This document shows positions 694-33,551 of a stretch of DNA of 34,489 bases, piece by piece. The DNA comes from a virus (Duplodnaviria; Heunggongvirae; Uroviricota; Caudoviricetes), in the IMG/VR virus record IMGVR_UViG_2541047695_000003. One strand, written 5' to 3'. The notes under the pieces are model-generated. The model worked only from the letters and a program-made list of their open reading frames with translations, did no database searches and was not told where the DNA came from. Each line of letters starts with the position of its first letter. The first letter of the stretch is position 1. The position numbers and the translations under genes were made by a program.

Positions 694-717
694 GGGACTC
701 TTCGGAGTCCCTTTTTT
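694..717. terminator. Terminator hairpin shared by converging transcription
   Basis: GGGACTC-TTCG-GAGTCCC followed by T6 on the + strand; abuts the stop codon (716-718) of the minus-strand gene. Confidence 0.7.
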
Positions 718-1660
718 ATTGGCAGTAAGAAAAGTTAGTACCGTACATTTCATCATGAAGCATTGCAACATTGCGTTTCTGTTCTTCTTCCTCGTCTACC
801 GCATCACTAGAAAAATGAGATTTGCCCTTAAAAGAACGAAGCAATTGCAGTGCAGCCATCGGATCACGCATCACATCGATTTTCACTTCTACTTCATCAT
901 TTGCGGCCTCATCAGCCGCATTTTCAACTACTGCCACCGGAGCAACTTCTTTAGCTTTCAGTTCTTCAATCTCAGCTTTCTGTGCTTCGATGATCTGGTC
1001 TTTTTCTTTCAGTGCAGCTTTCAGTTCTGCGATCTGTGCTTCCAGTGCAGAGAAACGATCTTCAACAGCAACCGGAGAAACAGCATTAACCTGTGCTTCC
1101 AGTTCTACGAAAGCGTCGCAAGATTCAATACGTGCTTTTTCTTCACCTTCATATGCAACCAGTTCTACTACTTCTTTCTCAGTAGCGTGGCTGTTAAAGA
1201 ATACAGCAAAGTAAGGATTGCCGGATTTGGTGAAGTTCAGTTTAGCTTTTCCGGTAACTTCTTTACGACGACCAAAGGTAATGTTGCAATCAGCGGTATC
1301 CTGAAAATCCATGTTAGGAGCGGAAACGATAGCAGTATCACCAGCAATCACTAGGTGGAACAGTTCAGAAGAGTTCTTAACGGTGAAAGTAACGATGTGG
1401 TCTACTGCAACGTCTTTAGCAGGTTTAACGCGGTCGATTGCTTTACGAATGCCGTTAGGCAGTTTACCGTCAACACCAAAGCCAGCCGCGATCAGTGCTT
1501 CACGATGTGCTTTAAAGCCAGCGAAAGCGGATTTCTGCTGCGCAAAGGAAACATGAGCAACAACTTTCGGCTGAATCTTCTTGTTTGCTTCGGTGCCAAA
1601 TTTGATAACTGCTTTAGCGTTGGTTACTTCGTTAGTGAAAAAGTTAGCGGAAAATAACAT
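716..1660 (-). CDS. Abundant early protein: beta-rich N-domain, central coiled coil, acidic C-terminal region; function unknown (ssDNA-binding or annealing role is a guess)
   Basis: 314-aa ORF, GGAG SD 8 nt upstream, strongly optimised codons (cgt, ggt, ctg, gaa), heptad-like AQIAELKAALKEKDQIIEAQKAEIEELKAKE, acidic DAVDEEEEQ. Confidence 0.9.
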   Translation of the reverse strand: MLFSANFFTNEVTNAKAVIKFGTEANKKIQPKVVAHVSFAQQKSAFAGFKAHREALIAAGFGVDGKLPNGIRKAIDRVKPAKDVAVDHIVTFTVKNSSELFHLVIAGDTAIVSAPNMDFQDTADCNITFGRRKEVTGKAKLNFTKSGNPYFAVFFNSHATEKEVVELVAYEGEEKARIESCDAFVELEAQVNAVSPVAVEDRFSALEAQIAELKAALKEKDQIIEAQKAEIEELKAKEVAPVAVVENAADEAANDEVEVKIDVMRDPMAALQLLRSFKGKSHFSSDAVDEEEEQKRNVAMLHDEMYGTNFSYCQ

Positions 1661-1703
1661 TATAAATACTCCTGTGGAAAGTTAGTTTTAATTGTTCATT
1701 TCA

Positions 1704-1740
1704 AGCCTCCTTTGCTGCAACAAGGGAGGCTTTTTCTTTT
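1704..1740 (+). terminator. + strand intrinsic terminator lying between two minus-strand genes
   Basis: AGCCTCC...GGAGGCT stem followed by TTTTTCTTTT on the + strand only. Confidence 0.55.
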
Positions 1741-1774
1741 TTAAAGCCATCATATAATTCTCAGTGAAAGTGGA

Positions 1775-1954
1775 TTAACAAACTTGAACGTTAATCTTTA
1801 CCTGAATTTCGTATTTCTTCATTAGCTTGTAGAATCCGCTTCTATCAATTCCTTCCTTCTTAAAGAAGTTTTCCCCGCCTCGCTCAGTGTCGCTGTAAAA
1901 GCGTTTAGCAATATCAACAATCATTTCACGAGTGAACTTAACAGGTCTAGCCAT
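1775..1954 (-). CDS. Small HTH DNA-binding protein, paralog A (Hin/excisionase-like)
   Basis: ATG at 1954 (MARPVKF...) with GAGGA SD; the 1969 start in the ORF track is a TTG; shares RPxKF...IA..Y...GI...FYK.MKK..I with 5372-5605 and both halves of 5634-6239. Confidence 0.8.
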   Translation of the reverse strand: MARPVKFTREMIVDIAKRFYSDTERGGENFFKKEGIDRSGFYKLMKKYEIQVKINVQVC

Positions 1955-2049
1955 AAGTAGATTCCTCAAATGTGGATTAATAAGGACAATAAAAAGAGCT
2001 TTTCGCCCTCGATACTTCTATTTATAAAAGTCATTTCAGAAAACCCTGC

Positions 2050-2160: not shown

Positions 2161-2296
2161 TGTATGAATTAGCAGTGAATCAGGAGATTTTCAGAAGTGA
2201 ACAATCATTTCACACATGTATTTATAACGTGGAAATTCTTGCTTATCATCTATATGGGGACTGTTTAGAAAATTTCAACCCCCACCAGTGAGAAAA

Positions 2297-2325
2297 AGTA
2301 TAAAATAATCCTTGACAGTTGTCAA
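2297..2325 (-). promoter_or_regulatory. Strong sigma70-type leftward promoter
   Basis: Minus strand TTGACA (2325-2320), 17 nt spacer, TATACT (2302-2297); the -35 is half of the dyad TTGACAgtTGTCAA at 2312-2325. Confidence 0.6.
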
Positions 2326-2878: not shown

Positions 2879-2920
2879 CGCGAAGCGCTAACCAATTACT
2901 TCTAGTAACAACTAATTTAA

Positions 2921-2939
2921 ACTAGATGATACTAGATGG
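2921..2939 (+). repeat. CTAG-rich repeat ACTAGATGATACTAGATGG
   Basis: Near-identical to 3123-3140; further CTAG motifs at about 2901, 2956, 3057 and 3074. Confidence 0.6.
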
Positions 2940-3122
2940 TCTTAGAAGGAATTAACTAGTTTGCTCGCTCGCTTCGCTCACTCTCAAACGTCTGCGACGC
3001 CACTGCGTGGCATCGAGAATCACTTCTGAAAGGATTTTCTCGAAAGGGATTTAATACTAGTTACTAACTGATTCTAGAAAGATAGTAATAATCACTTTGA
3101 AGATAATAGTAGTTAACTGGTT

Positions 3123-3140
3123 ACTAGATGATTCTAGATC
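3123..3140 (+). repeat. CTAG-rich repeat ACTAGATGATTCTAGATC
   Basis: Second copy of the 2921-2939 motif; followed by ATCACTT, which also occurs at about 3020 and 3091. Confidence 0.6.
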
Positions 3141-3197: not shown

Positions 3198-3289
3198 AAA
3201 TTGCTTCCTGATTATTATTTCTCCAAAAGAAAGATTATTATATTCTAAAGATACTTCTTCGTTTTGATCATAATTTAATCAAATCATGA

Positions 3290-3309: not shown

Positions 3310-3346
3310 AATACAATCACCTTTCATAATAACAAGAATTTTCTCT

Positions 3347-3378
3347 TTATAAATAATAGTGAACTTACTTGATTCACT
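3347..3378 (+). promoter_or_regulatory. TTATAAATA box plus AGTGAA...TTCACT leader hairpin upstream of the first rightward gene
   Basis: TTATAAATA 3347-3355, AGTGAA 3358-3363, TTCACT 3373-3378; near-identical arrangement at 30229-30268. Confidence 0.5.
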
Positions 3379-3398
3379 TTCTTTTAGAGGATACCACT

Positions 3399-3848
3399 AT
3401 GATCAATACTAAAACTCCTTTCGTACTTCTGGGTCTGGACTCTGAAAACTATGGTAACTTCCATATGCTAGAAGTTTTCGCTCATCGTGGTTATAACATC
3501 ATTCGTCATTCCGAAGACTCCAACTACTCAACTGCTTTCTACGCTTTAAAACGAAATGGTCGTCCTACTGTGATCATCGACTGTTTTACTGATGAGGGTC
3601 GTCTTCAATACAACGATATTCCAGCAATTATTGTTCGTGATGATCTGCCGTTTCAAGTCCGTTCCGGTGACATTGACCTGGGTAGCTTCTTGACTCTTCG
3701 TGAACTGGATGAAGCAATGTTTAATTACGGTAAAGAAACCGCTCAGGAAGCCCCAGAACAAGATGAGGAAGACGAAGACTACGCACCAATCGCTTTCTCT
3801 TCTCACGGTGGCTTCTACGGTTACGACGAAGGCTTAGATATGCTGTAA
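3399..3848 (+). CDS. Acidic early protein, 149 aa, unknown function
   Basis: ATG 3399 with AGAGGA SD (the 3369 start in the track is TTG); optimised codons; 28 D+E against 11 K+R; tail EAPEQDEEDEDYAPIAFSSHGGFYGYDEGLDML. Confidence 0.85.
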   Translation: MINTKTPFVLLGLDSENYGNFHMLEVFAHRGYNIIRHSEDSNYSTAFYALKRNGRPTVIIDCFTDEGRLQYNDIPAIIVRDDLPFQVRSGDIDLGSFLTLRELDEAMFNYGKETAQEAPEQDEEDEDYAPIAFSSHGGFYGYDEGLDML

Positions 3849-3883: not shown

Positions 3884-3912
3884 TTGACAAAAATTTCTGA
3901 CTTTTTTATGAT
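3884..3912 (+). promoter_or_regulatory. Sigma70-type promoter
   Basis: TTGACA (3884-3889), 17 nt spacer, TATGAT (3907-3912); a second TTGACA at 3921-3926 lacks a good -10. Confidence 0.6.
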
Positions 3913-4311: not shown

Positions 4312-4347
4312 TTATAAATAAAATTGTTCCGGTTGAGATGCCGGAAC
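4312..4347 (+). promoter_or_regulatory. TTATAAATA box followed by GTTCCGG...CCGGAAC hairpin
   Basis: TTATAAATA 4312-4320; stem 4326-4332/4341-4347; an orphan AGGAGG follows with no start codon at the right spacing. Confidence 0.45.
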
Positions 4348-4389: not shown

Positions 4390-5196
4390 ATGAATACTGT
4401 TACCGTTATGAATACTGCTAAAACTGCTTCCGTGTCTCTGGTTGTTGATAACACCAAACCGCTGACCATGTCTTCCCGTCAGATCGCTGAATTTACCGGA
4501 AAGAAACACTTTCACGTAAAACGCGACATTCGCGAAATGCTGATTACCTTAGAATTAGATGAATCCAAATTTGGATGCATCTTTTTTGACCAATATGGAC
4601 GCGAGCAAACAGAATATCACTTGAATGAAGAACTGACTCTGACTCTTGTCACTGGTTACAATATCCAGATGCGAAACGCGGTTATTCAGGAATGGAAGCG
4701 ACTGAAAGAAGAAAATGAAAAACTTCGCTCTACTCCGGTTAACCCGTATGCAGACTTTGAAGAAACAGACTGGATCGAACTGGCATTAAAGAAAACTCGC
4801 GAAAATAAAAAGCTGATTGAACTTCATGTTCGCAAATCCGTAGATAGCCATTCAATGACGCGTCTGTTAGGCGCTAAAAAGGGCGCTACGAAGGTTAAAG
4901 AAGCACTGACGGCCTTACGTACTGCTGGATACATCGAGCGCGTCTATGATGAAAATAACAAGCCGTGTGGGTATGTTGCTAATGATTCTTCTCTCTCTTT
5001 CTGCCGCATGAATGCTCACTACCAACTTGAGTTTACTGTTGATGTGCTTCCGGTGCTGGTTGAATTGGGTGTTTTGGAAGAAGAACAAAAAGCAACTCTG
5101 AATCTTCCTAAGCCGAACAACACTATTCTGATTCAAAATAAAGCGGCTGAACGTCTCCGTCAGAATGTTGGATCACTGGAAGTCTTCGGACTGTAA
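4390..5196 (+). CDS. rha: Rha-family phage regulatory protein with a C-terminal extension
   Basis: N-terminal LTMSSRQIAEFTGKKHFHVKRDIREML matches the Rha-domain pattern as I recall it; AAGGGGA SD. Confidence 0.7.
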   Translation: MNTVTVMNTAKTASVSLVVDNTKPLTMSSRQIAEFTGKKHFHVKRDIREMLITLELDESKFGCIFFDQYGREQTEYHLNEELTLTLVTGYNIQMRNAVIQEWKRLKEENEKLRSTPVNPYADFEETDWIELALKKTRENKKLIELHVRKSVDSHSMTRLLGAKKGATKVKEALTALRTAGYIERVYDENNKPCGYVANDSSLSFCRMNAHYQLEFTVDVLPVLVELGVLEEEQKATLNLPKPNNTILIQNKAAERLRQNVGSLEVFGL

Positions 5197-5371: not shown

Positions 5372-5605
5372 TCAAAAACCTGTTGCTTCTACGATCTGAC
5401 CATCACCGATCTGAACATAGAATTTAATGTCTAACTTCTTCATATTCTTATAGAATTGGGCAATTGAAATCCCATGTTCACTAAGAATCTGTTCTTTCGC
5501 TTCCTTACCACGATCCGCTGTATAATAAGCGTAGGCAATATCAGCCATTTGTTCAGCGTTAAAACGGGCAGGACGACCGCGAGTAGCTTTAGTAGTCATA
5601 GTCAT
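5372..5605 (-). CDS. Small HTH DNA-binding protein, paralog B
   Basis: TRGRPARFNAEQMADIA...GISIAQFYKNMKKLDIKFYVQIGDGQIV; GGAGA SD fits the third-codon ATG (5599) better than 5605. Confidence 0.8.
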   Translation of the reverse strand: MTMTTKATRGRPARFNAEQMADIAYAYYTADRGKEAKEQILSEHGISIAQFYKNMKKLDIKFYVQIGDGQIVEATGF

Positions 5606-5616: not shown

Positions 5617-5634
5617 AAAGTGAATGTTCACTTT
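5617..5634. promoter_or_regulatory. 18-bp palindrome AAAGTGAAtgTTCACTTT between the two HTH genes
   Basis: Perfect 8-bp arms with a 2-nt centre, so too tight for a full-length RNA hairpin; same GTGAA/TTCAC arms as the leader hairpins. Confidence 0.5.
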
Positions 5635-6239
5635 TATTTAGAGGACTTACATTTTATCGGAAAAAGTTCTCCATCGTCAATACTCATAAAGAACTCTGCC
5701 TTAATCCCGTACTTCTTCAACCGTGAATAGTATGTACCCCGACTTATATCAACCTTGCGCAGCACTTCAAAGAACCCTTTAGGATCGTTGTAATAGTGGC
5801 TGTATCGCACGTTAGCGAGTTCTACAAACAATTCCCTTGTATCACCATAGCCTTTCTTGAAAGCCTCGTTACGATAGCGTGTAATAGCGTGATTCAATCT
5901 CTTCTGTTTCAACACTTCTCGGATCGGCTTCCACTGCAACCTATAGATAGGACCGTCATCAATGCGATAATAACGCTTGATATCAAAATCAAACCAATCT
6001 CGGACTCGCTGAAACTCTGTCTGTGAGGTGCGATACTTCTTAAAGAAGTTATGAATATCGGTATACCCATGATCACGATACAACTCGATTAAAATCTGTT
6101 TAGCTTCCTCACGACTAAAGCCAGATGTTGTGTAATCAGTCTTCTTGTGATGGTGCTTAACTGGCAAACGATATTCATGATCGGTACAACAAGAAAAGGC
6201 TAATTCTACTTCATCTCTTTGTTGCTGATTAATTAGCAT
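5634..6239 (-). CDS. Tandem double-HTH DNA-binding protein, paralog C (two modules)
   Basis: 201 aa; each half repeats the paralog pattern ([12 protein letters not shown]...[10 protein letters not shown] and [26 protein letters not shown]); AAGGGGG SD; divergent from the large terminase. Confidence 0.85.
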
Positions 6240-6326
6240 ACAACCCCCTTAAATATTAATACCCGTATTTATCAAAATATCAACAATTTAATAAATACCT
6301 TCATATTTCGTAATGAGGGTAATTAC

Positions 6327-8234
6327 ATGAAACTAATTTCTAATAAGGCCAAATTAAAAAAGATTCTCAGAAATGCAGCCAAATATATTACGCCACCGCC
6401 TAAACTCCTTCCATCGGAATGGTGCGAAGCTAATATGGTGCTGGTAGATGGTCCTCAAGCTGGGGATAAAGTTAAATTGCTGTCATTCCAGAAAGGTATG
6501 ATTGATGCTCCTTTCCTTGAGAACAAGAAAAAGTATGTTCTGATGACCAGTGCGCAGATCGGAAAGACTACCATCCTGAACGGCATCCTGTTTAACCAGA
6601 TGGCTAACGATCCATGCAATATGATTATCGGACAATCAACCGCTAAAGAAATGTCTCAATATCTCGCTGGTAAGATCCGACCGTCTATCGAAGCATGTGA
6701 TGCATTAAAAGACGTGGTTACAGACAAGAATGATCGCAATGCGGTTAACAACAATAACCAACTCCAGCTAAAAACGAATCACTTCCTGTACATGGTATCG
6801 CTTACCAGTCCATCAACCCTGCGCGGTAAGACTGCAAAGGTCGGACTACTAGACGAAATCGATGCTGCTACAGCCTCAGAAGAAGGTGATCCGGTGGCAC
6901 TGGCTGCTAACCGTTTAACTACCTTTGGCGATGAAGGCCGATTAGTCGTATCCAGTACCCCGACCAGTAAGCTCGGAAGCATTAACCAGCAATGGTTATC
7001 AAGCGATATGCGTATGTTTTTTGTTCCGTGTCCTCATTGCGGGGAACACCAGGTGATCGAGTGGGAAAACGTTCAATTTGAATGGCGTAACATCGATGGT
7101 AAGAACTTACCCGATCCTGATACCGCTCGTTATATTTGCCCCCACTGTAAGAACGCATGGACAGAAGGGGAACGAATCAGGGCAGTAGCGCAAGGCGAGT
7201 GGAGAGCAACCCGTGAAAGTGAAGTAGCAGGATTCTGGATTAGCCGTCTGTATTCACCTTTCAGCACGATCCGCGCTTGTGTGGTTGATTTTAGTCATGC
7301 GTGGCAATCCTTTGATTTACAATCATTTTATAACACCGTGTTAGGCAAGGTATACGATGATCAGGACACGGCAGTAGAAGCAAATGAACTGGAACAACTC
7401 AAAACAGATGTTTCTATCGAGAATATCCCTGATGACGTGATTTTCTTGTGCTCAGGAATTGACCAGCAATTGGATCGCGCAGAATCTACCATCTTAGGTG
7501 TAGCGAAAGATAAGGTTTACATTCTGGATCACCGTAGCTTTTACGATCATAACTGTGAACGATACGAATCACCTGTATGGGATCGTCTGGTTAACTTCAA
7601 GAAAACCAAATTCTATAACGTTAATGGTGAACGTGTGCCAATGCTCGCCAGCTTCCTCGATACATCAAACGGTCGATTCACTCAAGCCGGATACCGTATT
7701 TGTGGTAAGTGGAAGAACCTACACGCTATTAAAGGTAGTTCATCTGGTAATGCTCCAGTGATTCCGGTTAAACCTACCCGCACAGGTGGTCATGAATTGC
7801 TTATGCTGGGCGTTAACGTTGGTAAATCCGCTGTTCGTGAAATGCTGGTTAGAAACCTGAAAGATAATCCTCATATTGGCTTAGAAATATCAGAAACCGT
7901 TCCTGATGATTATCTCGATCAGCTTTTGAGTGAATCCATCAAGCGTACTACTACTGGTGTTCGTTGGGTGAAAAATCCAGGTAGTACCCGAAACGAGGCT
8001 CTCGACTGTCTGGTTTATAGCTATGCTGCTTCTCGCTACGTCCTTTCAAAAATGTCATGGGATAAACTCATTGCAATGAAAGACAGCTTAAACAGCGTTA
8101 AAGAAGAACCCGTAAAAGCTCCTGAATCGCAATCTGACGAGCAAATCGAAGAAACTAAGCCAATCACACGACCGCAACGTCAAAACATCGCCAGACGCCC
8201 AAATAGAGGCCGTAGCTGGGTAACATCGTTCTAA
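6327..8234 (+). CDS. terL: Terminase large subunit, GpA (lambda A) family
   Basis: 635 aa; Walker A-like [10 protein letters not shown]; zinc-ribbon CPHCGEHQ...CPHCKNAW; position ahead of the portal. Confidence 0.95.
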
Positions 8235-8306
8235 TAACTCGCCGTCCTTCGGGGCGGCTTACTCCTAAATATTGTTAATCCAATAACAATTAAATAAGGG
8301 GTAATT

Positions 8307-8804
8307 ATGAGTTTAGAACTAATTCCCTTAGTAATTCGTAAAGGCGAAAAAATCACGCTGGCGAATGAAGAGGGTGTAACAATTCAGGTAGGAAATAATA
8401 ATAAAGGTATCATTTATCAGGTTGATGATACTCCGGCTAATCACGAGATTAAAACCTTAGATTTTGCCGAAGGTAAATATACCATCGTAATAACTTTGGA
8501 AGAAGAACTGATATCAATGCAGGAATTAACTGTTTTACCAGTATTCGCCAAACAATCCAAAAAAGAATATCTGCGGGAAACTATCGCCTTAATCGAGCAA
8601 GTTATTTTCGCCCGTTTATCTGGGGACGAAGCCGCATTATCAGCAATGACAGTGAAAGGGAATACTTTCGCCTATGAGTCATTGGCTGTTCTCCAGACTC
8701 TAAAAGTCGATTATGAACGTCAACTGTCTAAATTAATTCAAGCCGAACGACGTAAACAGGGAATTAGCCCGATTAAAAATATCAAATTACGTCTTACGCG
8801 ATAA
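8307..8804 (+). CDS. Head-completion protein with gpW-like C-terminal half and an 80-aa N-terminal extension
   Basis: Sits between terminase and portal like lambda W; C-terminal helix-hairpin-helix pattern recognised by eye only. Confidence 0.75.
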   Translation: MSLELIPLVIRKGEKITLANEEGVTIQVGNNNKGIIYQVDDTPANHEIKTLDFAEGKYTIVITLEEELISMQELTVLPVFAKQSKKEYLRETIALIEQVIFARLSGDEAALSAMTVKGNTFAYESLAVLQTLKVDYERQLSKLIQAERRKQGISPIKNIKLRLTR

Positions 8805-12537: not shown

Positions 12538-12567
12538 GTATGTAAATACTCCATAAAGGGGGTAACT

Positions 12568-14107: not shown

Positions 14108-14180
14108 TTGCTTCTCTAAATAAAACATGACGCGGGAGGTTAACGCCTCCCTTATTCCTGTTTTATAGTGAGGTGATTCG

Positions 14181-17100
14181 ATGCAGTCGATCCAATTTAA
14201 ACGAACAAATGTTTCTGGCAAAAAACCAACGCCGGAACAATTACAGGTCGGTGAGGTAGCAATCAACCTTAAAGACCATGTTATTTTTACCAAAGACCGA
14301 GATCATGAAGTAGTTCAAATCTCTGTTTCTCCTGAAACTCACGCGGCACTAGAATCTAAAGTTGATGCTAATAAAAAAGAACTGGATAGCACAATTGCAG
14401 TAAATGACCGCAATATTCACGCTAAAGTAGATGAAATTAAACAAACTACTGATGCAACCATCGCAGCAAATCACGCAGAAATTAACAATAAAGTTGATGT
14501 AATTAAACGCGAAACCGACGCGACAATCGAGGCCAATAAAAATAAAGCTGCTTCCGATCTTGCTGGTGTTAAAGCTGAATTGTCGGATACCATCAACGCT
14601 AATAAAAATGCGGCTGCTGTAGCAACTCAGGAACTGGACACCCGCATCAATAAAAAAGTTGATGATATTAAATCCCGTACCGATGCAACCATCGCAAGCA
14701 ATGACAAAGCAATCAATGACAAAGTTGATTTGATTAAGGCAGAAACTGACCGCACTATCGCAGCAAATCACGCCTATGCGGAAAATCAGTTAACTGACAC
14801 CTACAATAACCTTACTGGTGTGATTGCAGCCAATAAGCAAGAGGCAGCGGATAACGTCGCAGCATTAACCCGTGATGTTGAAGCCAAAAATACAGCAATT
14901 CATAGCAAAGTTGACAATAACAAGTCTTACACTGATTCTGAATTGGCACGTTTAGAAAGCCGTATTGATGCAGCCGATGGATCTGCTGATGGCAAGTACA
15001 TCAAAAAACACGTAAACACTTATACTGATGGTTATTTGCTGTCTAAGACCGCAAACTATTTTGATGATCCAAATGCGCGTAATCTTGATTACTTTGGTGC
15101 ATTCCGCATGAATGACCTGGCGGGTCATATTGCAATGATCTTGCATGTTCCGCATCCATCTGGTGTTAATCATGCTCGTGGCTTCGAGTTCACTTATGGG
15201 TCTAATCCACATGCTACTGTAAGAACATACGGCTATGATGAATTGGGACATTTGGCATATTCTCACCGCATGTATCATGAAGGTGATAAACCTACTCCGG
15301 CTGAAATTGGCGCATATTCGAAAGCAGAAATTGACCGACTGTTCCAGAAGACGCTTAATTTTGGTATCGAGGGTGGTTGGTTTAAACTAGGCACTTTGAC
15401 AATGCCACAACAACACGGTCGCACGGCTAAGATCCGTTTGGTTGGTGGTAACGGTTATAACGTAGGACATAATGGACAAGCCAATATTATCGAATTGGTG
15501 ATTCGATGCGGCAACAATAGCCCGAAAGGTGTTGTATTCAATGCGTATTATACTATTTGGCATCATGAACAACATTTTTGCGCTATTCCAACCGATGGCG
15601 ACAATTACGATCTTTACGCTTACTACGGTGCACATACAGGATTTGTTTTAGCAGAATATCAAGTTTCTTCCGGTGGTGTTTCTTTAAACCTGTTGGATAC
15701 TCCTGAATATCTGGGTGGTGAAAAACCTGTTGCAGATGAAATTTTTGATGCTCTTAACATTTCATCGTTCAATAACTTTAGCAACCGTGGGACGTTAAAT
15801 TTTGCTGGCAATCATCAAGGCCAATATGATATTGAGCATTTAAACGAACAACCGACAAATGCTAAAAAGATGTTGCGTCGCTTCCGTAGTTGTGCACCAG
15901 CTACAATCTGGCATGAGACAGTTGATGATAACGCATATCGTCTTGCTACTGGATACGAAGATACAAATCAGGAATTATTGCTGTCAGCAACATCCGGGTT
16001 ACATGTCAAGAAATTAACATTGGATGGCGGTGTTACTGGAAATTCTGGTATTGATATTCGTCGAGGACCAAACGAATCAAGCCATTTTAATTTCATGGAT
16101 TATCGCACTGGACAAGATGTTCGTAATGGCTGGTTTGGCTTCGGTGATGGTCAGACCAAAGATTTTATTTGGTGGAACGATAACGGTCAAAACTCTATAA
16201 ACCTGATTGAAGATGGTGAATTGCATATTACTGGCGGTAAAGGCCAGAAAATTGTAATGAATAGCGAAGTTGCATTATCTGAAAATGCTCGTTTGGCTGT
16301 CAAAGGTGGTAACTATGGTTTAATCCTTCGTAATGATGGTTCTAGCTTCCATATTCTTACTACCGATTTAAAAGATTCCTTTGGGACGTGGAACACTCGT
16401 AGACCATTTAGTTATGATTTCGCCGAAGGTGGATTAGATCTAGGTGGCACAGCTACCGCACGCTGTTTACATCTGGGAATTGATGGTAGCACCCGCATCG
16501 AAGATAATATGGTGTTTAGATCAGGGTCTCGTCAGTCAATGGACTATATTGAATTAATCCATTGGGGTAACAGTAATACCGCTCGTAACAACGTTTTGAG
16601 TATGAAAGACTCGAAAGGATTCCTTGCTGAATTTGAACGCGTGGGGGGTACTAACGGCGTTAAAACCAGATTCTTTGGCGAAACATTCACTGACGGTACA
16701 TTATACCTAAATCAGATGAATAATAGCTCTGAACGATTCTCTATCAATAACTGGGGAAATTCAGAAGTTGGTCGCGCGGCAGTGATGGAAGTCGGTGATT
16801 CCAAAGGTTATCACTTCTATACTGAACGTAGGACAGATAACAGTTTGATGTTTGATGTTGCTGGCGCTTTTACTGTGCATGGACCTTCCGGGATTACTAT
16901 CAAAAACTCTGCTGGTGCTCGCCACGTCTGGTTTAGAGATGATAGCGATACGGAAAAGGCTGTTATCTGGGCTACAGATGAGGGTATTTTACATATTCGC
17001 AATAACCACGGTGGACAATTTACACATCACTTCCAGGGCGCGATGATTAAACTGGAAGGGCGTGTTCCTTATGCCGCAGATCAAGGACTTATCCGTGGTG

Positions 17101-17705
17101 AGGTTTCTGGTGGTGCATATGTTGCATGGAGAGACCGACCTGCTGGTTTGTTGGTTGACTGTCAACAAAGCGTTGATAGTGCTCATGCTATTTGGAAAGC
17201 GGTTGATTGGGGGCGTAACTACATCGCTGCTATGGACGTTCATTGTCCCGGTGATAGTAATAATACTGCGGCAGCGGTTCTTCATGTTCAGGGTGCTGAT
17301 TATCAATTCCATGCAAGTGGAGAATTTCATGCCACTGGTAACGGAAACTTTAACGATGTTTATATTCGTTCCGATCGTCGTCTGAAAATTAATGTTGAAG
17401 ATTACGAAGAAAATGCGGTGGATAAGGTAAATAAACTCAAAGTTAAAACCTACGATAAAGTTAAATCTCTTAATGACCGAGAAGTTATAGGTCATGAGAT
17501 TGGTATTATCGCACAGGATTTACAAGAGGTATTACCGGAAGCTGTTAAAACCGCAAAAATTGGTGGTTTTGATAACCCAGAAGAAATTTTAACAATTTCA
17601 AACTCCGCAGTGAACGCGCTTTTAATTAAAGCGGTCCAAGAAATGAGCGAAGAAAATAAACTTCTTCGTGAACGTCTTGCTGCAATTGAAGCTAAATTAG
17701 GGTAA
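14181..17705 (+). CDS. Tail fibre with N-terminal anchor, coiled-coil repeats and a C-terminal self-cleaving chaperone domain
   Basis: 1174 aa; MQSIQFKRTNVSGKKPTPEQLQVGEVAINL fibre N-terminus; about 6 repeats of KVDxIKxxTDATIAxN; C-terminal SDRRLK motif. Confidence 0.9.
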   Translation: MQSIQFKRTNVSGKKPTPEQLQVGEVAINLKDHVIFTKDRDHEVVQISVSPETHAALESKVDANKKELDSTIAVNDRNIHAKVDEIKQTTDATIAANHAEINNKVDVIKRETDATIEANKNKAASDLAGVKAELSDTINANKNAAAVATQELDTRINKKVDDIKSRTDATIASNDKAINDKVDLIKAETDRTIAANHAYAENQLTDTYNNLTGVIAANKQEAADNVAALTRDVEAKNTAIHSKVDNNKSYTDSELARLESRIDAADGSADGKYIKKHVNTYTDGYLLSKTANYFDDPNARNLDYFGAFRMNDLAGHIAMILHVPHPSGVNHARGFEFTYGSNPHATVRTYGYDELGHLAYSHRMYHEGDKPTPAEIGAYSKAEIDRLFQKTLNFGIEGGWFKLGTLTMPQQHGRTAKIRLVGGNGYNVGHNGQANIIELVIRCGNNSPKGVVFNAYYTIWHHEQHFCAIPTDGDNYDLYAYYGAHTGFVLAEYQVSSGGVSLNLLDTPEYLGGEKPVADEIFDALNISSFNNFSNRGTLNFAGNHQGQYDIEHLNEQPTNAKKMLRRFRSCAPATIWHETVDDNAYRLATGYEDTNQELLLSATSGLHVKKLTLDGGVTGNSGIDIRRGPNESSHFNFMDYRTGQDVRNGWFGFGDGQTKDFIWWNDNGQNSINLIEDGELHITGGKGQKIVMNSEVALSENARLAVKGGNYGLILRNDGSSFHILTTDLKDSFGTWNTRRPFSYDFAEGGLDLGGTATARCLHLGIDGSTRIEDNMVFRSGSRQSMDYIELIHWGNSNTARNNVLSMKDSKGFLAEFERVGGTNGVKTRFFGETFTDGTLYLNQMNNSSERFSINNWGNSEVGRAAVMEVGDSKGYHFYTERRTDNSLMFDVAGAFTVHGPSGITIKNSAGARHVWFRDDSDTEKAVIWATDEGILHIRNNHGGQFTHHFQGAMIKLEGRVPYAADQGLIRGEVSGGAYVAWRDRPAGLLVDCQQSVDSAHAIWKAVDWGRNYIAAMDVHCPGDSNNTAAAVLHVQGADYQFHASGEFHATGNGNFNDVYIRSDRRLKINVEDYEENAVDKVNKLKVKTYDKVKSLNDREVIGHEIGIIAQDLQEVLPEAVKTAKIGGFDNPEEILTISNSAVNALLIKAVQEMSEENKLLRERLAAIEAKLG
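17370..17702 (+). other. Peptidase S74-type intramolecular chaperone auto-processing domain of the fibre
   Basis: SDRRLKINV...IGIIAQDLQEVLPEAV...LLRERLAAIEAKLG matches the endosialidase / T5 L-shaped-fibre C-terminal chaperone pattern. Confidence 0.75.
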
Positions 17706-17743
17706 TTGGAAAGCGGGGAGAAATCTCCGCTAAGGATTCTTAT

Positions 17744-18040
17744 ATGGGATATTGGGTAAGTAGTGAAATTAATACTAAAATCGATGCTTTAAAATGGCAT
17801 GTATTTGATATTCCTAACGGCTATGGTACTGCTCGTGCTGGTGTCGCTGTAATGCGTCATAATGCTGGTGGTGGGTGGTCTGATGCACATATTAACGTAG
17901 ATGGTTTGACCGTTGCTCGTCGTCGTGGTGGGACCAATTGGGGATCTACTATAAATTCGTTTGTTCCTGCTGGCTGCACCGTCTCCTTTGGTTTAGGGGG
18001 TGAAGGTGGTGTTGAATATTTTAAATTCATGGAGTTTTAA
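17744..18040 (+). CDS. Small Gly-rich protein, FDIPNG paralog 1 of 3
   Basis: 98 aa; conserved xW, FDIPNG(W/Y), GL, WG, V(S/T)F, YFKF blocks shared with the next two genes. Confidence 0.85.
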   Translation: MGYWVSSEINTKIDALKWHVFDIPNGYGTARAGVAVMRHNAGGGWSDAHINVDGLTVARRRGGTNWGSTINSFVPAGCTVSFGLGGEGGVEYFKFMEF

Positions 18041-18042
18041 TT

Positions 18043-18348
18043 ATGGCTGGATGGATAAATCAAAGAATGTCAAACGCTATTAGTATTTGGGCTAATGGTG
18101 GATATTTTGATATCCCCAACGGCTGGGTTACTGATTCATGCGGAATTGTTTTTGCTCATATGGAAGCCATTAACGGTGCTGGTGATCTTGATTCTGAATT
18201 GGCTGTAAATGGATTGATTGAATCAGGTCATCATGCTGGTGATGCTGGGAGTTGGGGCGCTAGTTCTTTAGTTGGCGCTGGTGCTACCGTTAGCTTTACA
18301 TTGGGTAAAGGTAGTTTGCATTATTTTAAATTCAGGAGAATGCACTAA
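18043..18348 (+). CDS. Small Gly-rich protein, FDIPNG paralog 2 of 3
   Basis: 101 aa; starts 2 nt after the paralog 1 stop. Confidence 0.85.
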   Translation: MAGWINQRMSNAISIWANGGYFDIPNGWVTDSCGIVFAHMEAINGAGDLDSELAVNGLIESGHHAGDAGSWGASSLVGAGATVSFTLGKGSLHYFKFRRMH

Positions 18349-18650
18349 TGGCATTTTGGGTAGATGGCGCTTTGGGGAATAGGGCGGGTAAAGCAAATCA
18401 AGGATGGTTTGATATTCCTAACGGTTGGACAGCCGACGCTTTCGGGACTATTTCATTCTGTGCTCATTCTTCCGGTGGTGGCGGTGGTGACTCTGAATTG
18501 CTTATTCATGGTTTGTGTGTTTCTGGAAGCCATAAGGGTCATGATTGGGGACAGATTCATTCTTGTATTGCACCGCAAGGGGCGGTAATTACCGTTAGCA
18601 CAAATAGGGGGATCGCTCATCTTCGTTATAGACGTTTGAGCAACCGCTAA
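18348..18650 (+). CDS. Small Gly-rich protein, FDIPNG paralog 3 of 3
   Basis: 100 aa; TAATG overlap with paralog 2. Confidence 0.85.
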   Translation: MAFWVDGALGNRAGKANQGWFDIPNGWTADAFGTISFCAHSSGGGGGDSELLIHGLCVSGSHKGHDWGQIHSCIAPQGAVITVSTNRGIAHLRYRRLSNR

Positions 18651-18704
18651 ATAAATAGAATTACGGGTATGTGCCCTATTGTTTAAAATAGAAGGAAAAG
18701 AATA

Positions 18705-19175: not shown

Positions 19176-19183
19176 TATTATCT

Positions 19184-19208
19184 AGCCATCCTTCGGGGTG
19201 GCTTTTTT
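19184..19208 (+). terminator. Rho-independent terminator or attenuator after the tube gene
   Basis: AGCCATCC-TTCG-GGGTGGCT followed by T6. Confidence 0.8.
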
Positions 19209-19257
19209 GTTTCCAATTCTAAATAAACATATCTAATTAACTTAAGAGGAAACAATA

Positions 19258-22384: not shown

Positions 22385-22426
22385 GCCCCCATAGTGATAA
22401 ATAATCATAAAACTATGGGGGCTTTT
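22385..22426. terminator. 10-bp hairpin with A-run and T-run flanks; also sequesters the SD of the next gene
   Basis: GCCCCCATAG (22385-22394) / CTATGGGGGC (22413-22422), 18-nt loop, TTTT, then ATG at 22429. Confidence 0.65.
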
Positions 22427-27912: not shown

Positions 27913-27959
27913 ATCTAAATAATTCTGCCATTAAATTATATAAAAATATCGGGGGCGTA

Positions 27960-29112: not shown

Positions 29113-29122
29113 TCCATAAATA

Positions 29123-29861: not shown

Positions 29862-30225
29862 AACAAAAGCGCCTCTGGTGGGCGCTTTTTTGTTAGAATA
29901 TGCTGGCGATGTTAGCTATATTTCTGACCATTTTTTCATTATAGACAAATATACCGCAGATGATAAAGTTGTATTCGACGAAGTTGATCCGTCTCTGGTT
30001 GAAGCAATGAAAGAACCTGAGATCGTCATTGAAGAAACAAAAGAAGAATCTCCAGCAGTTGAACCAGTGGTCGAAGAAGTTAAGTCAGATGTTGAAGAAG
30101 CACCGGAAGTTAAAGTGGAATCTCCGGTAGCCAACATTTTCTCTGACGAAGCAGAACATCGTTCCCCAGCACATGACACTGATTCATTTTGCGATCTTAC
30201 TGGTTTCCAAAACTACAATAATTAA
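29854..30225 (+). CDS. Acidic protein with an uncertain start
   Basis: Open frame with coding-like composition; the only ATGs (29824, 29854) lie inside the end of the endolysin gene, and the frame runs through the terminator hairpin; next ATG at 30007. Confidence 0.4.
   Translation: MDKTKAPLVGAFLLEYAGDVSYISDHFFIIDKYTADDKVVFDEVDPSLVEAMKEPEIVIEETKEESPAVEPVVEEVKSDVEEAPEVKVESPVANIFSDEAEHRSPAHDTDSFCDLTGFQNYNN
29868..29891 (+). terminator. Rho-independent terminator after the endolysin
   Basis: AGCGCC-tctggtg-GGCGCT followed by T6, A-run upstream. Confidence 0.7.
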
Positions 30226-30228
30226 TTC

Positions 30229-30268
30229 TTATAAATAGTAGTGAATATTATTTTATTGAGGATTCACT
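30229..30268 (+). promoter_or_regulatory. TTATAAATA box plus TAGTGAAT...ATTCACTA leader hairpin with the SD in the loop
   Basis: TTATAAATA 30229-30237, AGTGAA 30240-30245, TTCACT 30263-30268, ATG 30272. Confidence 0.5.
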
Positions 30269-30271
30269 ACT

Positions 30272-31270: not shown

Positions 31271-31282
31271 TACAATTAAATT

Positions 31283-31310: not shown

Positions 31311-31343
31311 GTGTTTAGCTCGTTATACGTCGATTTAGGCCGC

Positions 31344-33506: not shown

Positions 33507-33551
33507 AGTAGAATTTCCTCTTGTTATTTGAATTACGATATATTTATATCG

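Follow-up and report, generated by a model that had tools for sequence, protein, structure and literature searches.

Related systems

Late transcription in phage T4 combines a minimal 8-bp promoter, a sigma factor of which only region 2 is left and, as a mobile enhancer, a clamp that tracks along the DNA, and is, to our knowledge, regarded as private to T4-like phages. Satellites that use the transcription factors of a helper phage include P4 with P2 Ogr/Delta, PLE with ICP1, and the PICIs; PLE, which possesses a replication origin of iteron type, reacts to a virulent myovirus. In T4, the late promoter is formed by TATAAATA at positions -13 to -6, the -13 position being poorly conserved in T4-like phages: the late box of Aeh1 is CTAAATA, and RB49, KVP40 and S-PM2 are variable at -13 (PMC1524935). 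The common core of the T4-like late promoters is accordingly TAAATA (PMC1524935). In the T4 genes e, soc, 49, I-TevI, mobE and segB, the late promoter lies in the DNA encoding the 5' strand of a hairpin that sequesters the RBS (PMC3014915). Phage rV5 displays the late motif TggTAaAAtA and lacks gp55, gp33 and gp45 (PMC3606486), and the PeSL of RB49 and phi1 are promoter/stem-loop cassettes (PMC2839356, PMC4122927).

The window considered here, that is the whole stretch of 34,489 nucleotides that was analysed, is an E. coli prophage of about 35 kb integrated in ycdX, and the repeat TTATAAATA found in it is the sharpest part of a broader promoter-like signal, with TAAATA as its core, located ahead of about 19 gene groups. 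This signal shares with the gp55-dependent late promoters of T4-like phages the TAAATA core, the absence of a -35 and a position immediately 5' of virion and lysis genes, in many cases 3' of a terminator. It differs from them by belonging to a temperate, non-Straboviridae genome of about 35 kb without detectable gp55, gp33 and gp45, by including regulatory-looking genes, and by an added conserved -N-TAGTG start region, unseen in the T4-like DNA examined. With rV5, the likeness lies in a T4-late-like, AT-rich box ahead of late genes in the absence of the T4 late factors; rV5 is, however, a 138-kb virulent myovirus with a TAAAATA motif in a GG context and has no known relation to the element. 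The best reading of the boxes is that of T4-late-type promoters, whose reader would be either the factor that a superinfecting T4-like phage brings in or an unrecognised one encoded by the element; in it, we infer that the boxes act as promoters, where transcription starts and which trans-acting factor is involved.

The element and its relatives

Relatives of the E. coli prophage are known from Salmonella and Providencia, along with Shigella copies, and the family is one of widespread enterobacterial prophages or phage-plasmids (E. coli/Shigella, Salmonella, Providencia), the portal identity across genera (window versus Salmonella and Providencia) being 62-65%. The set of genes for packaging, head, tail, fibre and lysis is complete in the element, which encodes TerS, TerL, a portal, a protease-capsid fusion, tail and lysis proteins and a serine recombinase, and carries about 10 iterons. 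Circularly permuted contigs of the size of the element were found, suggesting that it also occurs free. The element is a temperate, siphovirus-like prophage or phage-plasmid and not a Straboviridae phage; it also falls outside the satellites, if these are defined by the absence of most virion genes and the need of a helper for them, since its virion set is complete.

Among 50,697 phage records searched, no isolated phage of this family was found, although the prophage is common. Of the phage records, only DCP80 has a related virion module; it is a chimeric T4-like assembly whose first 17.6 kb are element-like and contain TATAAATA ten times on the plus strand and never on the minus strand; in this distant relative, perfect TATAAATA copies stand ahead of virion genes. 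Megablast with the element-like part of DCP80 matched DCP80 itself only, and there was no match in an IMG/VR scan with the DCP80 portal, in a scan of genome contigs with the portal alignment or in plasmids. The literature searched on TATAAATA in prophages, on satellite late promoters, on ycdX prophages and on prophage uvsW does not describe the element. Finally, Rfam run on the whole window with E up to 1 returned three sub-threshold chance matches, none of them at the boxes.

The repeat and its TAAATA core

The sequence-only reading had listed six exact copies of TTATAAATA, all of which are present, at 1660-1668(+), 2019-2027(-), 2219-2227(-), 3347-3355(+), 4312-4320(+) and 30229-30237(+). 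It had estimated about one copy by chance; 0.71 are expected from 100 dinucleotide-preserving shuffles, whose maximum was three and none of which reached six. The 8-mer TATAAATA occurs seven times versus 2.31 expected, a count that takes in 33541-33548(-), where the near copy that had been pointed out does exist, with A in front of TATAAATA. Every copy of TTATAAATA is intergenic, as had been described, the one at 1660 overlapping by one base the start codon of the gene 716-1660(-). As for the start codons said to lie 40-70 nt away, this range, counted from the box end to the start codon, is roughly right for 2019(-) (64), 3347 (43) and 4312 (69) but too long for 30229 (34) and 33541(-) (34), and no ORF lies downstream of the 1660(+) and 2219(-) copies. 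The core had rightly been equated with the T4 late-promoter box, TATAAATA being that promoter at -13 to -6 (PMC1524935). More broadly, the proposal of -35-independent, factor-dependent elements of T4-late type fits the behaviour of the box, invariant in variable surroundings at 3347, 4312, 2219(-), 33541(-) and in the 30229 cassette, but needs correcting as to the unit, the genes concerned, the leader stem and the 1660(+) copy, which doubles as an RBS spacer of the other strand. The 9-mer does not hold as the unit, its first T being dispensable (relatives show G, C or A there); the first T of the 8-mer is variable as well, ATAAATA being invariant at the accessory sites and TAAATA at all sites. 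Nor is the signal restricted to early and accessory genes, TAAATA also preceding the terminase, head, tail, fibre and lysis groups.

Besides the 7 perfect TATAAATA copies, about 12 further sites ahead of genes have the TAAATA core. Sense-strand TAAATA is the top hexamer of the upstream regions in all three lineages, being found in 16 of 23 such regions in the window (shuffle mean 2.05, largest value 9 in 2000 shuffles), in 9 of 13 in Salmonella (shuffle mean 1.18) and in 11 of 18 in Providencia (shuffle mean 2.12), with antisense counts of 3, 2 and 1, respectively. Across the co-directional module at 6.3-30.3 kb, 13 sense and 0 antisense TAAATA were counted; within genes, 0 antisense copies were seen versus 11.0 +/- 3.2 expected from codon shuffles. 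Counted against the promoter reading are the shortness and AT-richness of the motif and the mild depletion or enrichment that some control hexamers show as well.

Boxes are found ahead of the same genes in Salmonella and Providencia despite diverged flanks, and in close relatives they appear as invariant islands where shuffled modules join, often directly after a terminator. The bases following the box vary (AT, CT, AA, GT, CC, CA, TT), as do the two bases before it, which are TA at the accessory/early cassettes, giving a perfect TATAAATA, whereas most of the virion and lysis genes have TC, AA, GA, CA or TG there. Candidate late-type boxes upstream of RB49 genes, namely GTATAAATA (after a terminator), AATAAATA and GCTAAATA, have the same variant spread, their range at two 5' positions matching that of the element. 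The sub-motif TAAATA-N-TAGTG is confined to the element loci and absent from the approximately 130 kb of T4-like DNA examined, a hint that the element may have a reader or a preferred start site of its own, and the boxes ahead of regulatory or early-looking genes (HTH proteins, Rha) make a poor fit to a purely late class.

The 9-mer copies had been reported to be devoid of a recognisable -35, and a sigma-70 scan bears this out, the best score there being 9/12. Two sigma-70 promoters scoring 11/12 are present in the element, TTGACA-17-TATGAT at 3884-3912(+), ahead of the 110-aa gene (3969), and TTGACA-17-TATACT at 2297-2325(-), which points leftwards and is conserved in relatives. At the boxes, the -35 is not conserved and the 30 nt upstream vary freely in relatives, with the box remaining constant; neither a TTGACA-like -35 located 16-18 nt upstream nor a -10 showing both the -11 A and the -7 T is found, TAAATA having A where the sigma-70 -10 has the -7 T, and the neighbouring bases being variable.

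Boxes at accessory and regulatory genes

The TATAAATA box at 3348-3355(+) stands ahead of a 149-aa gene (3399-3848), with a +1 predicted at G3361 by the T4 rule. In 33 close relatives (20 distinct sequences) this 8-mer is invariant, amid variation in the -35 region, in a portion of the leader and even in the allele of the downstream gene. It is followed at 3358-3378(+) by the inverted repeat AGTGAAC-N7-ATTCACT and then TTTCTTTT, a simple hairpin of z 0.07 whose 5' arm is gone in at least five relatives. The SD AGAGGA (3386-3391) finds a complementary stretch upstream, TTCTCT (3341-3346), and the predicted dG is -9.2 for the read-through RNA versus -2.2 for the box-initiated one, the SD pairing test being marginal (0.10). 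In the cargo cassette, TATAAATA at 30230-30237(+) precedes a 332-aa homing-endonuclease-like gene (30272-31270), with a predicted +1 at G30243, and the hairpin GTAGTGAAT-N15-ATTCACTAC at 30238-30270(+) encloses the SD and adjoins the ATG (dG -11 kcal/mol, z -3.4; -15.2 for the read-through RNA versus -2.9 for the box-initiated RNA). The 332-aa protein matches the phrog_681 'endonuclease' over residues 87-292 (E 4e-20) and has no Pfam or NCBIfam domain; in tblastn it matches, at 24-35%, genes of T5, Krischvirus and other phages that bear a (homing) endonuclease annotation. In relatives, the cassette with (T/A/G)ATAAATAGTAGTGA sits ahead of different cargo genes, in a highly variable slot.

The TATAAATA box at 4313-4320(+), ahead of the Rha-family gene (4390-5196), has T or C at its first position and a constant ATAAATA in relatives, where three different upstream contexts are encountered; the leader hairpin that follows it, GTTCCGG...CCGGAAC (4326-4347), has variable loops in relatives or is replaced by another hairpin. 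On the other strand, TATAAATA at 2219-2226(-) belongs to a transcript region, conserved and non-coding, that the sigma-70 promoter 2325-2297(-) precedes, and the conserved non-coding sequence after the box contains terminator-like hairpins; of 15 variants, 14 have TATAAATA as the box and one has ACTAAATA, with a preceding G in most. TATAAATA at 2019-2026(-) precedes a 59-aa HTH gene (1954-1775). The copy at 1661-1668(+), which has no downstream ORF, is followed by a plus-strand terminator at 1703-1741 and, read on the minus strand, is also the RBS spacer (GGAGTATTTATAATG) belonging to the gene 716-1660(-). At 33541-33548(-), TATAAATA is part of the palindrome ACGATATAAATATATCGT, ahead of the gene of a 139-aa signal-peptide protein (33506-33087), and is retained in all relatives ahead of three kinds of downstream gene start. 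Besides these perfect copies, TCTAAATA at 5635-5642(-) precedes a 77-aa HTH gene (5605-5372) and is followed by AAGTGAAcaTTCACTT; at this site Salmonella has AGTGATtaATCACT, a compensatory change. Lastly, GATAAATA at 6266-6273(-) is located ahead of the 201-aa gene (6239-5634), Salmonella carrying TTATAAATA at the equivalent position.

Boxes at virion and lysis genes

The large terminase gene (6327-8234) is preceded by AATAAATA at 6290-6297(+), a box kept at the equivalent position in Salmonella and Providencia and followed by the anti-SD CCTTCAT, complementary to ATGAGGG. Further boxes of the plus strand are CCTAAATA at 8264-8271, ahead of a 165-aa gene (8307-8804) and corresponding to CCCTAAATA at the equivalent position in Salmonella and Providencia, and TGTAAATA at 12541-12548, immediately 3' of a terminator and ahead of a 96-aa head-tail gene (12568), these two genera carrying TTGTAAATACT after the terminator. 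The tail-fibre gene (14181-17705) has TCTAAATA at 14115-14122(+), with CATAAATACCTCAT as its equivalent in Salmonella and Providencia, and the 156-aa (major tail) gene (18705) has AATAAATA at 18650-18657(+), with CAATAAATAATAAAAGTA as the equivalent in both. TCTAAATA recurs 3' of a terminator at 19218-19225(+), ahead of a 102-aa gene (19258), and again at 27914-27921(+), ahead of the lysis-region genes (27960). The terminator GCCCCCATAGT...ACTATGGGGGC has GATAAATA, at 22396-22403(+), in its loop and the SD of the gene 22429 on its 3' strand, and CATAAATA at 29115-29122(+) is followed by the anti-SD CCCTCATA, ahead of the gene 29151.

Predicted read-through gates

At 8 of 15 testable boxes, a T4-type start would fall within or beyond the 5' strand of a hairpin that would hide the RBS in the read-through RNA. 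At 8 of 15, predicted SD pairing in the read-through RNA exceeds that of the shuffled-extension controls, at most 0.03 of which attain the observed value, and it collapses in the box-initiated RNA. The pairing is 0.83 in the read-through RNA versus 0.50 at 2019(-) (control 0.00), 0.89 versus 0.48 at 5635(-) (control 0.02; dG -17.7 for the read-through RNA versus -1.2), 0.82 versus 0.34 at 6290 (control 0.02), 0.89 versus 0.54 at 14115 (control 0.00), 0.78 versus 0.29 at 19218 (control 0.03), 1.00 versus 0.51 at 22396 (control 0.00), 0.96 versus 0.40 at 29115 (control 0.00) and 0.78 versus 0.45 at 30229 (control 0.03). The difference in predicted dG between the two RNAs amounts to 7-16 kcal/mol. 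In this same test of SD pairing against shuffled extensions, SD sequestration was not found at 6 of the 15 boxes, the test being negative at 4312 and at 27914. The anti-SD gate geometry holds at the virion-gene boxes 6292, 14117, 19220, 22398 and 29117, and gating is also predicted at some homologous boxes in Salmonella and Providencia.

These structures change the view of the GTGAA/TTCAC hairpin and of the conserved 5' leader stem that the sequence-only reading had associated with the repeat. The (A)GTGAA...TTCAC(T) repeats do exist after 3347, 30229 and 2219(-); the hairpin at 30229 outperforms shuffles, but those at 3347 (z 0.07) and 2219(-) (z 0.12) do not. Conservation of the stem is not sustained: its 5' arm is deleted in several relatives, three of four simple hairpins folded no better than shuffles, and a T4-type start would fall within the 5' arm, so that the stem would be limited to the read-through RNA. 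The GTGAA/TTCAC repeat is better read as the inner part of a predicted read-through gate, which is not universal. Two other interpretations of the repeat were rejected, namely that of a dimeric operator, the spacing of the arms varying (2, 7 and 15 nt), and that of a stable 5' leader stem, in view of the predicted start inside it and of the 5' arm deleted in relatives.

In the mechanism proposed here, the functional core would be TAAATA, equivalent to positions -11 to -6 of T4, with the two preceding bases free. About 19 transcription units of the approximately 35-kb element would have such a box, with transcription beginning some 6 nt past it. In about half of these units, this start would fall within or past the 5' strand of a structure formed by the RNA with the SD region, this strand being an anti-SD, for example CTCT or CCTC before the box and CCTCAT or CTCC after it. 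Box-initiated RNA alone would thereby be translatable, the read-through RNA being silent or terminated. As at T4 e, soc, 49, I-TevI, mobE and segB, the box is placed in or just before the 5' strand and the pairing with the SD/AUG is predicted in the read-through RNA only; in the same line, the 30229 box precedes a homing-endonuclease-like gene. Unlike in T4, gates are predicted at about half of all units, virion genes included, and several hairpins double as the terminator of the upstream gene (box 22398).

T4-like DNA in the element

Judged by its sequence, the element has demonstrably swapped DNA with T4-like (Krischvirus, RB49-like) phages. Just upstream of the 30229 box, positions 29953-30208(+) hold an internal, non-functional fragment of a Krischvirus inh gene, 97-98% identical to inh of Phi1, GEC-3S, KFS-EC and others and aligning with the middle of RB49 inh; relatives of the element carry larger inh pieces with an intact uvsW adjoining. 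The terminator at 19179-19212(+) is identical at 33 of 34 positions to the one after RB49 hoc, and the distal tail-fibre module at 15267-18666(+) shares 80-94% DNA identity with Krischvirus and Tequatrovirus phages, over gp37 and genes downstream of it, the Pfam families Gp34_trimer and Gp38 being carried by relatives. A patch at 3209-3283(+) is 84% identical to positions 97689-97763 of RB49, which has another copy 150 bp away; it matches part only of a repeated intergenic RB49-like element (81-84%), the -10 of which is missing in the window. Like the PeSL of RB49 and phi1, the cassettes of the element are short conserved regulatory units where shuffled ORFan genes meet; PeSL differ in carrying strong sigma-70 early promoters, with AT-rich sequence upstream and a GC-rich stem-loop terminator, where the element cassettes carry the late-type box, and identity of the patch 3209-3283 with PeSL is only possible, this patch matching the RB49-like intergenic repeat and being devoid of a -10. 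The locus records that genes and regulatory cassettes have recently moved between a prophage and virulent T4-like phages, which is relevant to the host-range evolution of therapeutic T4-like phages.

Which factor could read the boxes

Homologues of the T4 late factors were searched for throughout the family. RB49 gp55 gave, against the window and all relatives, a best tblastn E of 2.3 and a best phmmer E of 0.9, and gp33 and gp45, taken from the T4-like part of DCP80, had no tblastn match below E=1 in any element locus. Nothing sigma-like was retrieved among the element proteins with PHROGs (E up to 5), Pfam and NCBIfam. The early and accessory proteins, searched with Pfam, PHROGs, NCBIfam and PADLOC, gave no gp55-, gp33-, Rep- or defence-like match, their matches being limited to Rha, phrog_681 (endonuclease), phrog_14908 and phrog_6147, and almost all early-region proteins are orphans. 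A homologue search with the 314-aa protein gave near-identical copies from E. coli and Shigella only, and an exhaustive one 11 clusters, which makes it a near-orphan without a function to transfer, and the structure of the 201-aa protein predicted by AlphaFold2 without alignment was uninformative (pLDDT 40).

As gp55, gp33 and gp45 are not detectable in the element, the most likely reader would be host RNA polymerase associated with the late sigma of a superinfecting T4-like phage with unmodified cytosine DNA (Krischvirus, RB49-like). The boxes would then be -35-independent promoters of the T4 late (gp55) type coupled to read-through gates and read via the late sigma of the superinfecting phage, a tentative proposal to which we give somewhat less than an even chance. 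The complete virion module, the lysis genes, the integrase and the iteron origin were counted against the reliance on a helper, an own late factor being expected of such an autonomous-looking element. If the helper reading is right, the morphogenetic genes of a resident element would be activated by a superinfecting phage, as in P4, PLE and PICIs; the element differs from these in having a full virion module and lysis genes of its own, so that the transcription apparatus only would be borrowed. A further-reaching proposal, which we consider rather doubtful, is that the family is wired to the late transcription apparatus of a superinfecting Krischvirus, building its own virions and escaping the doomed cell. 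The phage would shut off sigma-70 transcription and make gp55, gp33 and gp45, upon which the approximately 19 TAAATA promoters would fire and the gates open; the virions, bearing T-even-type gp37/gp38 fibres, would be those of the element, with only the sigma of the invader borrowed, and the element would act as an exchange reservoir for uvsW, inh, homing endonucleases and fibre tips.

The same promoters might instead be read by a sigma-like or RNA-polymerase-binding factor of the element itself, without detectable similarity to gp55, an alternative that we deem unlikely without being negligible. Such a factor would come from the product of either sigma-70 promoter or from the orphans, the candidates being the 314-aa protein, the 59-, 77- and 201-aa HTH paralogues, the C-terminal domain of Rha, and the 110-aa and 149-aa proteins; the likeness to T4 would reflect convergence or an old shared ancestry of recognition, and the T4-like patches ordinary mosaicism. 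The autonomous look of the element (virion and lysis genes, recombinase, iterons, permuted contigs) argues for it, as do the element-specific TAAATA-N-TAGTG, the boxes at regulatory-looking as well as late genes, and an early region made mostly of orphans, which leaves room for an unrecognised factor; besides, rV5-like phages combine a TAAATA-like late motif with the lack of gp55, gp33 and gp45 (PMC3606486). However, no conserved, sigma-sized and sigma-70-driven candidate is present in all three genera: the first rightward gene varies with the lineage (110, 64 or 217 aa), Providencia is without the 201-aa gene, for which structure prediction is of no help given its pLDDT of 40, and the lack of any isolated phage in 50,697 records, for a prophage that is common, is also counted against it. 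Whichever reader is the right one, a T4-late promoter core and a predicted read-through gate would organise nearly the entire genome of a temperate element that is common, unrelated and devoid of the cognate factor, the two outcomes being either a complete phage activated by the sigma of another phage, which would be a new lifestyle, or an unrecognised family of late sigma-like factors.

Three other explanations depart from a general late-type promoter. It is improbable that only the perfect TATAAATA copies beside T4-derived DNA are meaningful, as T4-type regulatory cassettes imported together with mobile cargo (30229, and possibly 3347 and 33541), TAAATA at virion genes being then an unrelated feature of AT-rich spacers such as terminator tails or translation-initiation regions. 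The 30229 box does lie 21 nt past the Krischvirus inh fragment, with a homing-endonuclease-like gene and a textbook T4 hairpin, in a highly variable slot where the cassette moves with different genes, and some TAAATA copies overlap stop codons or sit 10 nt from an ATG; but import accounts poorly for TAAATA holding its place at each virion gene across the three genera although the flanks have diverged, for its extreme sense bias, for the gate geometry at 6292, 14117, 19220, 22398 and 29117, and for the perfect TATAAATA at virion genes of the DCP80 relative. Very unlikely is the interpretation of the boxes as weak, -10-only sigma-70 promoters (TATAAA or AATAAT), constitutive or served by a classical activator: TATAAA equals TATAAT at five of six positions, AATAAT can be read where AT follows the box and 3329-3357 is listed at 9/12, but the invariant letters are TAAATA and not a hexamer with T at -7, the flanking bases vary, the TGn extension and the -35 are both absent, and the sigma-70 sites of the element are clean TTGACA-17-TATNAT. 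Equally remote, or slightly more so, is a protein-binding or RNA-level signal that is not a promoter (a repressor or IHF-like site, an RNase site, part of an anti-SD), to which one could relate the several boxes lying within the SD-pairing strand, the 33541 box inside a DNA palindrome and the 1660 copy that is also the RBS spacer of the opposite strand. Against it, the SD complementarity resides in the neighbours of TAAATA and not in TAAATA itself, the distance from TAAATA to the SD and ATG ranges from 19 to 86 nt, TAAATA is asymmetric and present as one copy per site, and its location 3' of terminators and ahead of each gene group is promoter-like.

A TAAATA-centred motif along the whole prophage

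The sequence-only reading had reported six copies of the nonamer TTATAAATA, all intergenic, and these are found at 1660-1668(+), 2019-2027(-), 2219-2227(-), 3347-3355(+), 4312-4320(+) and 30229-30237(+), against 0.71 expected, a count of six being reached by none of 100 dinucleotide-preserving shuffles. The octamer TATAAATA occurs seven times for 2.31 expected, the additional copy lying at 33541-33548(-). Five copies precede start codons as claimed, although the measured distance is 34-69 nt rather than 40-70 nt. Two of the seven octamers have no ORF downstream: the box at 1660(+) leads into a plus-strand terminator at 1703-1741, and that at 2219(-) sits within a conserved non-coding stretch. 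In agreement with the reported lack of a -35 element, a sigma-70 scan reached at best 9/12 at the boxes; elsewhere, it returned two clean 11/12 promoters, at 3884-3912(+) and 2325-2297(-).

While boxes are present at the early and accessory genes where they had first been noticed, the motif is genome-wide and also precedes virion and lysis genes. A one-mismatch search retrieved TCTAAATA, TGTAAATA, CATAAATA, GATAAATA and AATAAATA in the spacers 5' of terminase, head-tail, fibre, tail and lysis genes, on the sense strand in every case. In an unbiased count, TAAATA is the top hexamer of upstream regions in each of three lineages, being found in sense orientation in 16 of 23 such regions of the window (shuffle mean 2.05, largest 9 in 2000; antisense 3), 9 of 13 in Salmonella (shuffle mean 1.18; antisense 2) and 11 of 18 in Providencia (shuffle mean 2.12; antisense 1). 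The sense to antisense ratio is 13:0 in the co-directional module at 6.3-30.3 kb. Within genes, no antisense TAAATA occurs where codon shuffles predict 11.0 +/- 3.2, a depletion that counts as supporting evidence only, since some control hexamers are skewed too. In the Salmonella and Providencia relatives, a box precedes the same genes despite a diverged spacer, often immediately 3' of the preceding gene's terminator.

The early region of 33 close IMG/VR relatives (portal 88-96% identical) is a mosaic, in which the octamer at 3347 is unchanged in 20 distinct sequences while the upstream 30 nt come in four or more versions, several relatives have lost the repeat's 5' arm and three different genes lie downstream. 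The octamer at 4312 begins with T or C, and its ATAAATA is invariant in three upstream contexts, the leader hairpin being retained with varied loops or having another hairpin in its place. The base preceding the octamer at 2219(-) is G in most relatives, and the box at 33541(-) is retained ahead of three kinds of gene start. A cargo slot, 529-3,829 nt long, separates endolysin from recombinase, and its plus-strand genes share one upstream cassette, aatt.tctc..[T/A/G]ATAAATAgtagtga.cttattattttagaggaaactactATG. As the base before the box varies, the first T of the nonamer is dispensable; the motif, real and enriched as it is, is centred on TAAATA, ATAAATA being kept at accessory sites and TAAATA across all sites.

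Apart from the boxes, ACT often stands before start codons (ACTATG; 3399, 4390, 5605-, 12568, 30272, 33506-), and at AGTG-type boxes the start-codon ACTA(T) is complementary to the (A)TAGT directly after the box.

Resemblance to late promoters of T4-like phages

The invariant letters are unlike those of a sigma-70 -10 element, given that there is no T at -7 and that both neighbours vary freely. Late promoters of T4-like phages read TATAAATA at -13 to -6, although position -13 shows poor conservation in several phages and Aeh1 has CTAAATA (PMC1524935); judged from their sequence, the TAAATA boxes do fit this type. The same spread of candidate boxes upstream of genes as in the window is seen in 10 kb of RB49: GTATAAATA directly 3' of a terminator and before gene 24, AATAAATA before inh and uvsW.1, TATAAATA before uvsW, and GCTAAATA before uvsY.-2. 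In our view, the boxes are probably promoters built on a TAAATA core.

Predicted read-through gates at the boxes

In T4, the read-through RNAs of e, soc, 49, I-TevI, mobE and segB (the last two being free-standing endonuclease genes) lock the ribosome-binding site in a hairpin, and the late promoter lies in the DNA encoding the 5' strand of that hairpin, so that late transcripts are translatable (PMC3014915). The T4 start rule, with +1 at the sixth nucleotide after the box, was applied here, and the folding of read-through and box-initiated RNAs was compared. The respective values are -15.2 and -2.9 kcal/mol at 30229, -9.2 and -2.2 at 3347, -17.7 and -1.2 at 5635(-), and -11.5 and -1.3 for the relatives' cargo cassette. 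With shuffled 5' extensions as control, pairing of the Shine-Dalgarno (SD) region is significant (control fraction <=0.03) at 8 of 15 testable boxes, namely 2024(-), 5640(-), 6292, 14117, 19220, 22398, 29117 and 30232 (the boxes at 2019(-), 5635(-), 6290, 14115, 19218, 22396, 29115 and 30229); it is marginal at 3350 (the box at 3347), and six of the 15 show no effect. Just before the box, the anti-SD reads CTCT or CCTC; where it lies just after the box and is cut by the predicted start, it reads CCTCAT, CCTTCAT or CTCC. At 22398, the box occupies the loop of the upstream terminator, whose 3' strand carries the next SD. Gate behaviour is also predicted at some homologous boxes of the Salmonella, Providencia and DCP80 relatives, and the inner stem at 5635(-) changes from AGTGAAcaTTCACT in the window to AGTGATtaATCACT in Salmonella. 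Such modelled geometry would be hard to explain without transcription starting just 3' of the boxes.

The GTGAA/TTCAC repeats reported after several boxes are present, but only the hairpin at 30229 beats shuffled sequence (dG -11, z -3.4), those after 3347, 2219(-) and the TCTAAATA box 5635(-) folding no better. Of the proposed factor-dependent promoters with a conserved leader stem, the -35-independent, factor-dependent promoter of T4 late type is retained, whereas the repeat would be, rather than a leader stem, the inside of a read-through gate found at some boxes only. In the sub-motif TAAATA-N-TAGTG, a G falls on the predicted +1; this sub-motif is confined to loci of the element, being absent from the ~130 kb of T4-like DNA examined.

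Nature of the element

Short patches excepted, no close match to the window was found among 50,697 phage records or 72,556 plasmids. Of 5,426 complete E. coli genomes, 63 carry a ~35-kb prophage that is 90-94% identical to it, inserted in ycdX in strain GN4741. The window encodes TerS, TerL, portal, a protease-capsid fusion, a long fibre, a siphovirus or GTA-like tail, lysis genes and a large serine recombinase, together with a small early region coding for orphan proteins. Iterons (TTTTTGCCCCTGAAA), about ten at ~21-nt spacing, adjoin a repeat-rich non-coding region, the whole (2510-2716 and 2900-3140) looking like a plasmid-type origin; the repeat-rich region comprises ACTAGATGAT(T/A)CTAGA units and two copies of GGAGGGCnTnGCCCGACTG (2859, 3290). 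Comparable ctag-rich and 'gggcgtagcccg' repeats are found in the first 1.26 kb, non-coding, of DCP80.

Portal homologues reach 62-65% identity in a Salmonella clade and 63% in a Providencia member. Two contigs of element size, L040 (37,148 nt; Salmonella isolate GCA_023783755.1) and L081 (37,118 nt; metagenome scaffold), start or end in origin-like repeats and so show a circular permutation of the integrated prophage, a sign that a free form, episomal or excised, may exist. The portal is also carried by many 37-38 kb Salmonella contigs.

DNA shared with T4-like phages and a putative factor reading the boxes

Just 5' of the box at 30229, positions 29953-30208 are 97-98% identical to an internal piece of Krischvirus inh. 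In relatives, the same slot (equivalent to 29862-31343) holds larger inh pieces, an intact 499-aa uvsW with 74-85% DNA identity to that of RB49 (L054, L055, L066 and L070, with uvsW.1 also in L066) and three kinds of homing-endonuclease-like genes, so that the window keeps the remnant of a captured uvsW-inh segment. Intact uvsW, a helicase gene of T4 type, is common to many family members, with up to three different homing-endonuclease-like genes flanking it. The 332-aa gene behind box 30229 has matches to phrog_681 and to T5 and Krischvirus genes annotated as endonucleases; a catalytic domain was not recognised in its product. Moreover, 33 of the 34 positions of 19179-19212 agree with the terminator of RB49 hoc, 3209-3283 resembles an intergenic element that is repeated in RB49-like phages, and 15267-18666 shares 80-94% DNA identity with gp37 and the genes following it in Krischvirus and Tequatrovirus phages. 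This last segment comprises the distal tail fibre and, downstream of it, three glycine-rich genes of ~100 aa; other family members have Gp34_trimer and Gp38 adhesin domains in its place.

No homologue of gp55, gp33 or gp45 was found in the window or any relative. A superinfecting T4-like phage could supply the factor reading the boxes, the DNA patches pointing to Krischvirus. In Krischvirus DNA the cytosine is unmodified, so that a template with ordinary cytosine, resident in the cell, need not be barred from late transcription. Among phage records, a related virion module (portal 36% identical) is found only in 'Escherichia phage DCP80' (PQ671644.1; L004, L005, L039), a 141-kb sequence labelled Gaprivervirus. 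The record is evidently the product of scrambled assembly: rIIA, exonuclease, spackle and rpbA-like genes are duplicated in inverted order, and it has a gp23 of its own. At its start stands an unrelated siphovirus-like module of ~25 kb with a distant relationship to the window, and in its element-like first 17.6 kb all ten copies of TATAAATA are on the plus strand. From this it would seem that a T4-like lysate contained such an element, with contamination by an induced prophage being just as possible.

Alternatively, the element may encode its own, unrecognised factor: the early proteins of the window are orphans, and rV5, which has a similar motif but lacks gp55 (PMC3606486), must likewise have a factor of its own. 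We consider this reading rather less likely than not, and the same holds for a strictly helper-dependent lifestyle. The full explanation with a trans-supplied factor is put forward tentatively, its chances being somewhat below even. No description of such an element was found in the literature searched. The observation itself is far from chance, and the element offers a plausible, testable route to something more unusual.

Early proteins and non-coding stretches

For the 314-aa early protein, 1.84 billion representatives yielded no more than 11 clusters, and a single-sequence structure model of the 201-aa protein was uninformative. Small HTH domains that are paralogous to one another make up the 59-aa protein, the 77-aa protein and the C-terminal end of the 201-aa protein, putatively a family of DNA-binding proteins; an HTH-like motif, GRPxxF...G(I)S...FYKxMKK, is seen in the products of 1775-1954(-), 5372-5605(-) and 5634-6239(-). 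The C-terminal tails of gp33 (...TLDFLL) and gp55 (...SLDQFYEIEN) bind the gp45 clamp, and the 149-aa orphan behind box 3347 (3399-3848) ends in an acidic stretch followed by ...YGYDEGLDML, a resemblance in sequence that is speculative.

At 1661-1741(+), a TATAAATA box is followed ~35 nt on by a good plus-strand terminator (1703-1741), with no ORF and with compensatory changes among relatives in the terminator stem; a transcript of ~65 nt, antisense to the 5' UTR of the 314-aa gene, might possibly arise there. On the minus strand, at 2325-2047, the conserved strong sigma-70 promoter (2325-2297) is followed by ~250 nt without ORF containing a pair of similar terminator-like hairpins, GCACTG..CAGTGC+TTTTT (2162-2131) and CCACTG..CAGTGG+TTTT (2076-2047). 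This stretch, for which Rfam gave no match, is a candidate for small regulatory RNAs or an immunity/origin transcript. Finally, two tiny hydrophobic ORFs of 33 and 57 aa at the left end (101-202 and 256-429) are preceded by a ACTAAATA box and a conserved hairpin (GGGGGAGAACATCCCCC), with a like layout in Providencia carrying TATAAATACTAGTGAA.
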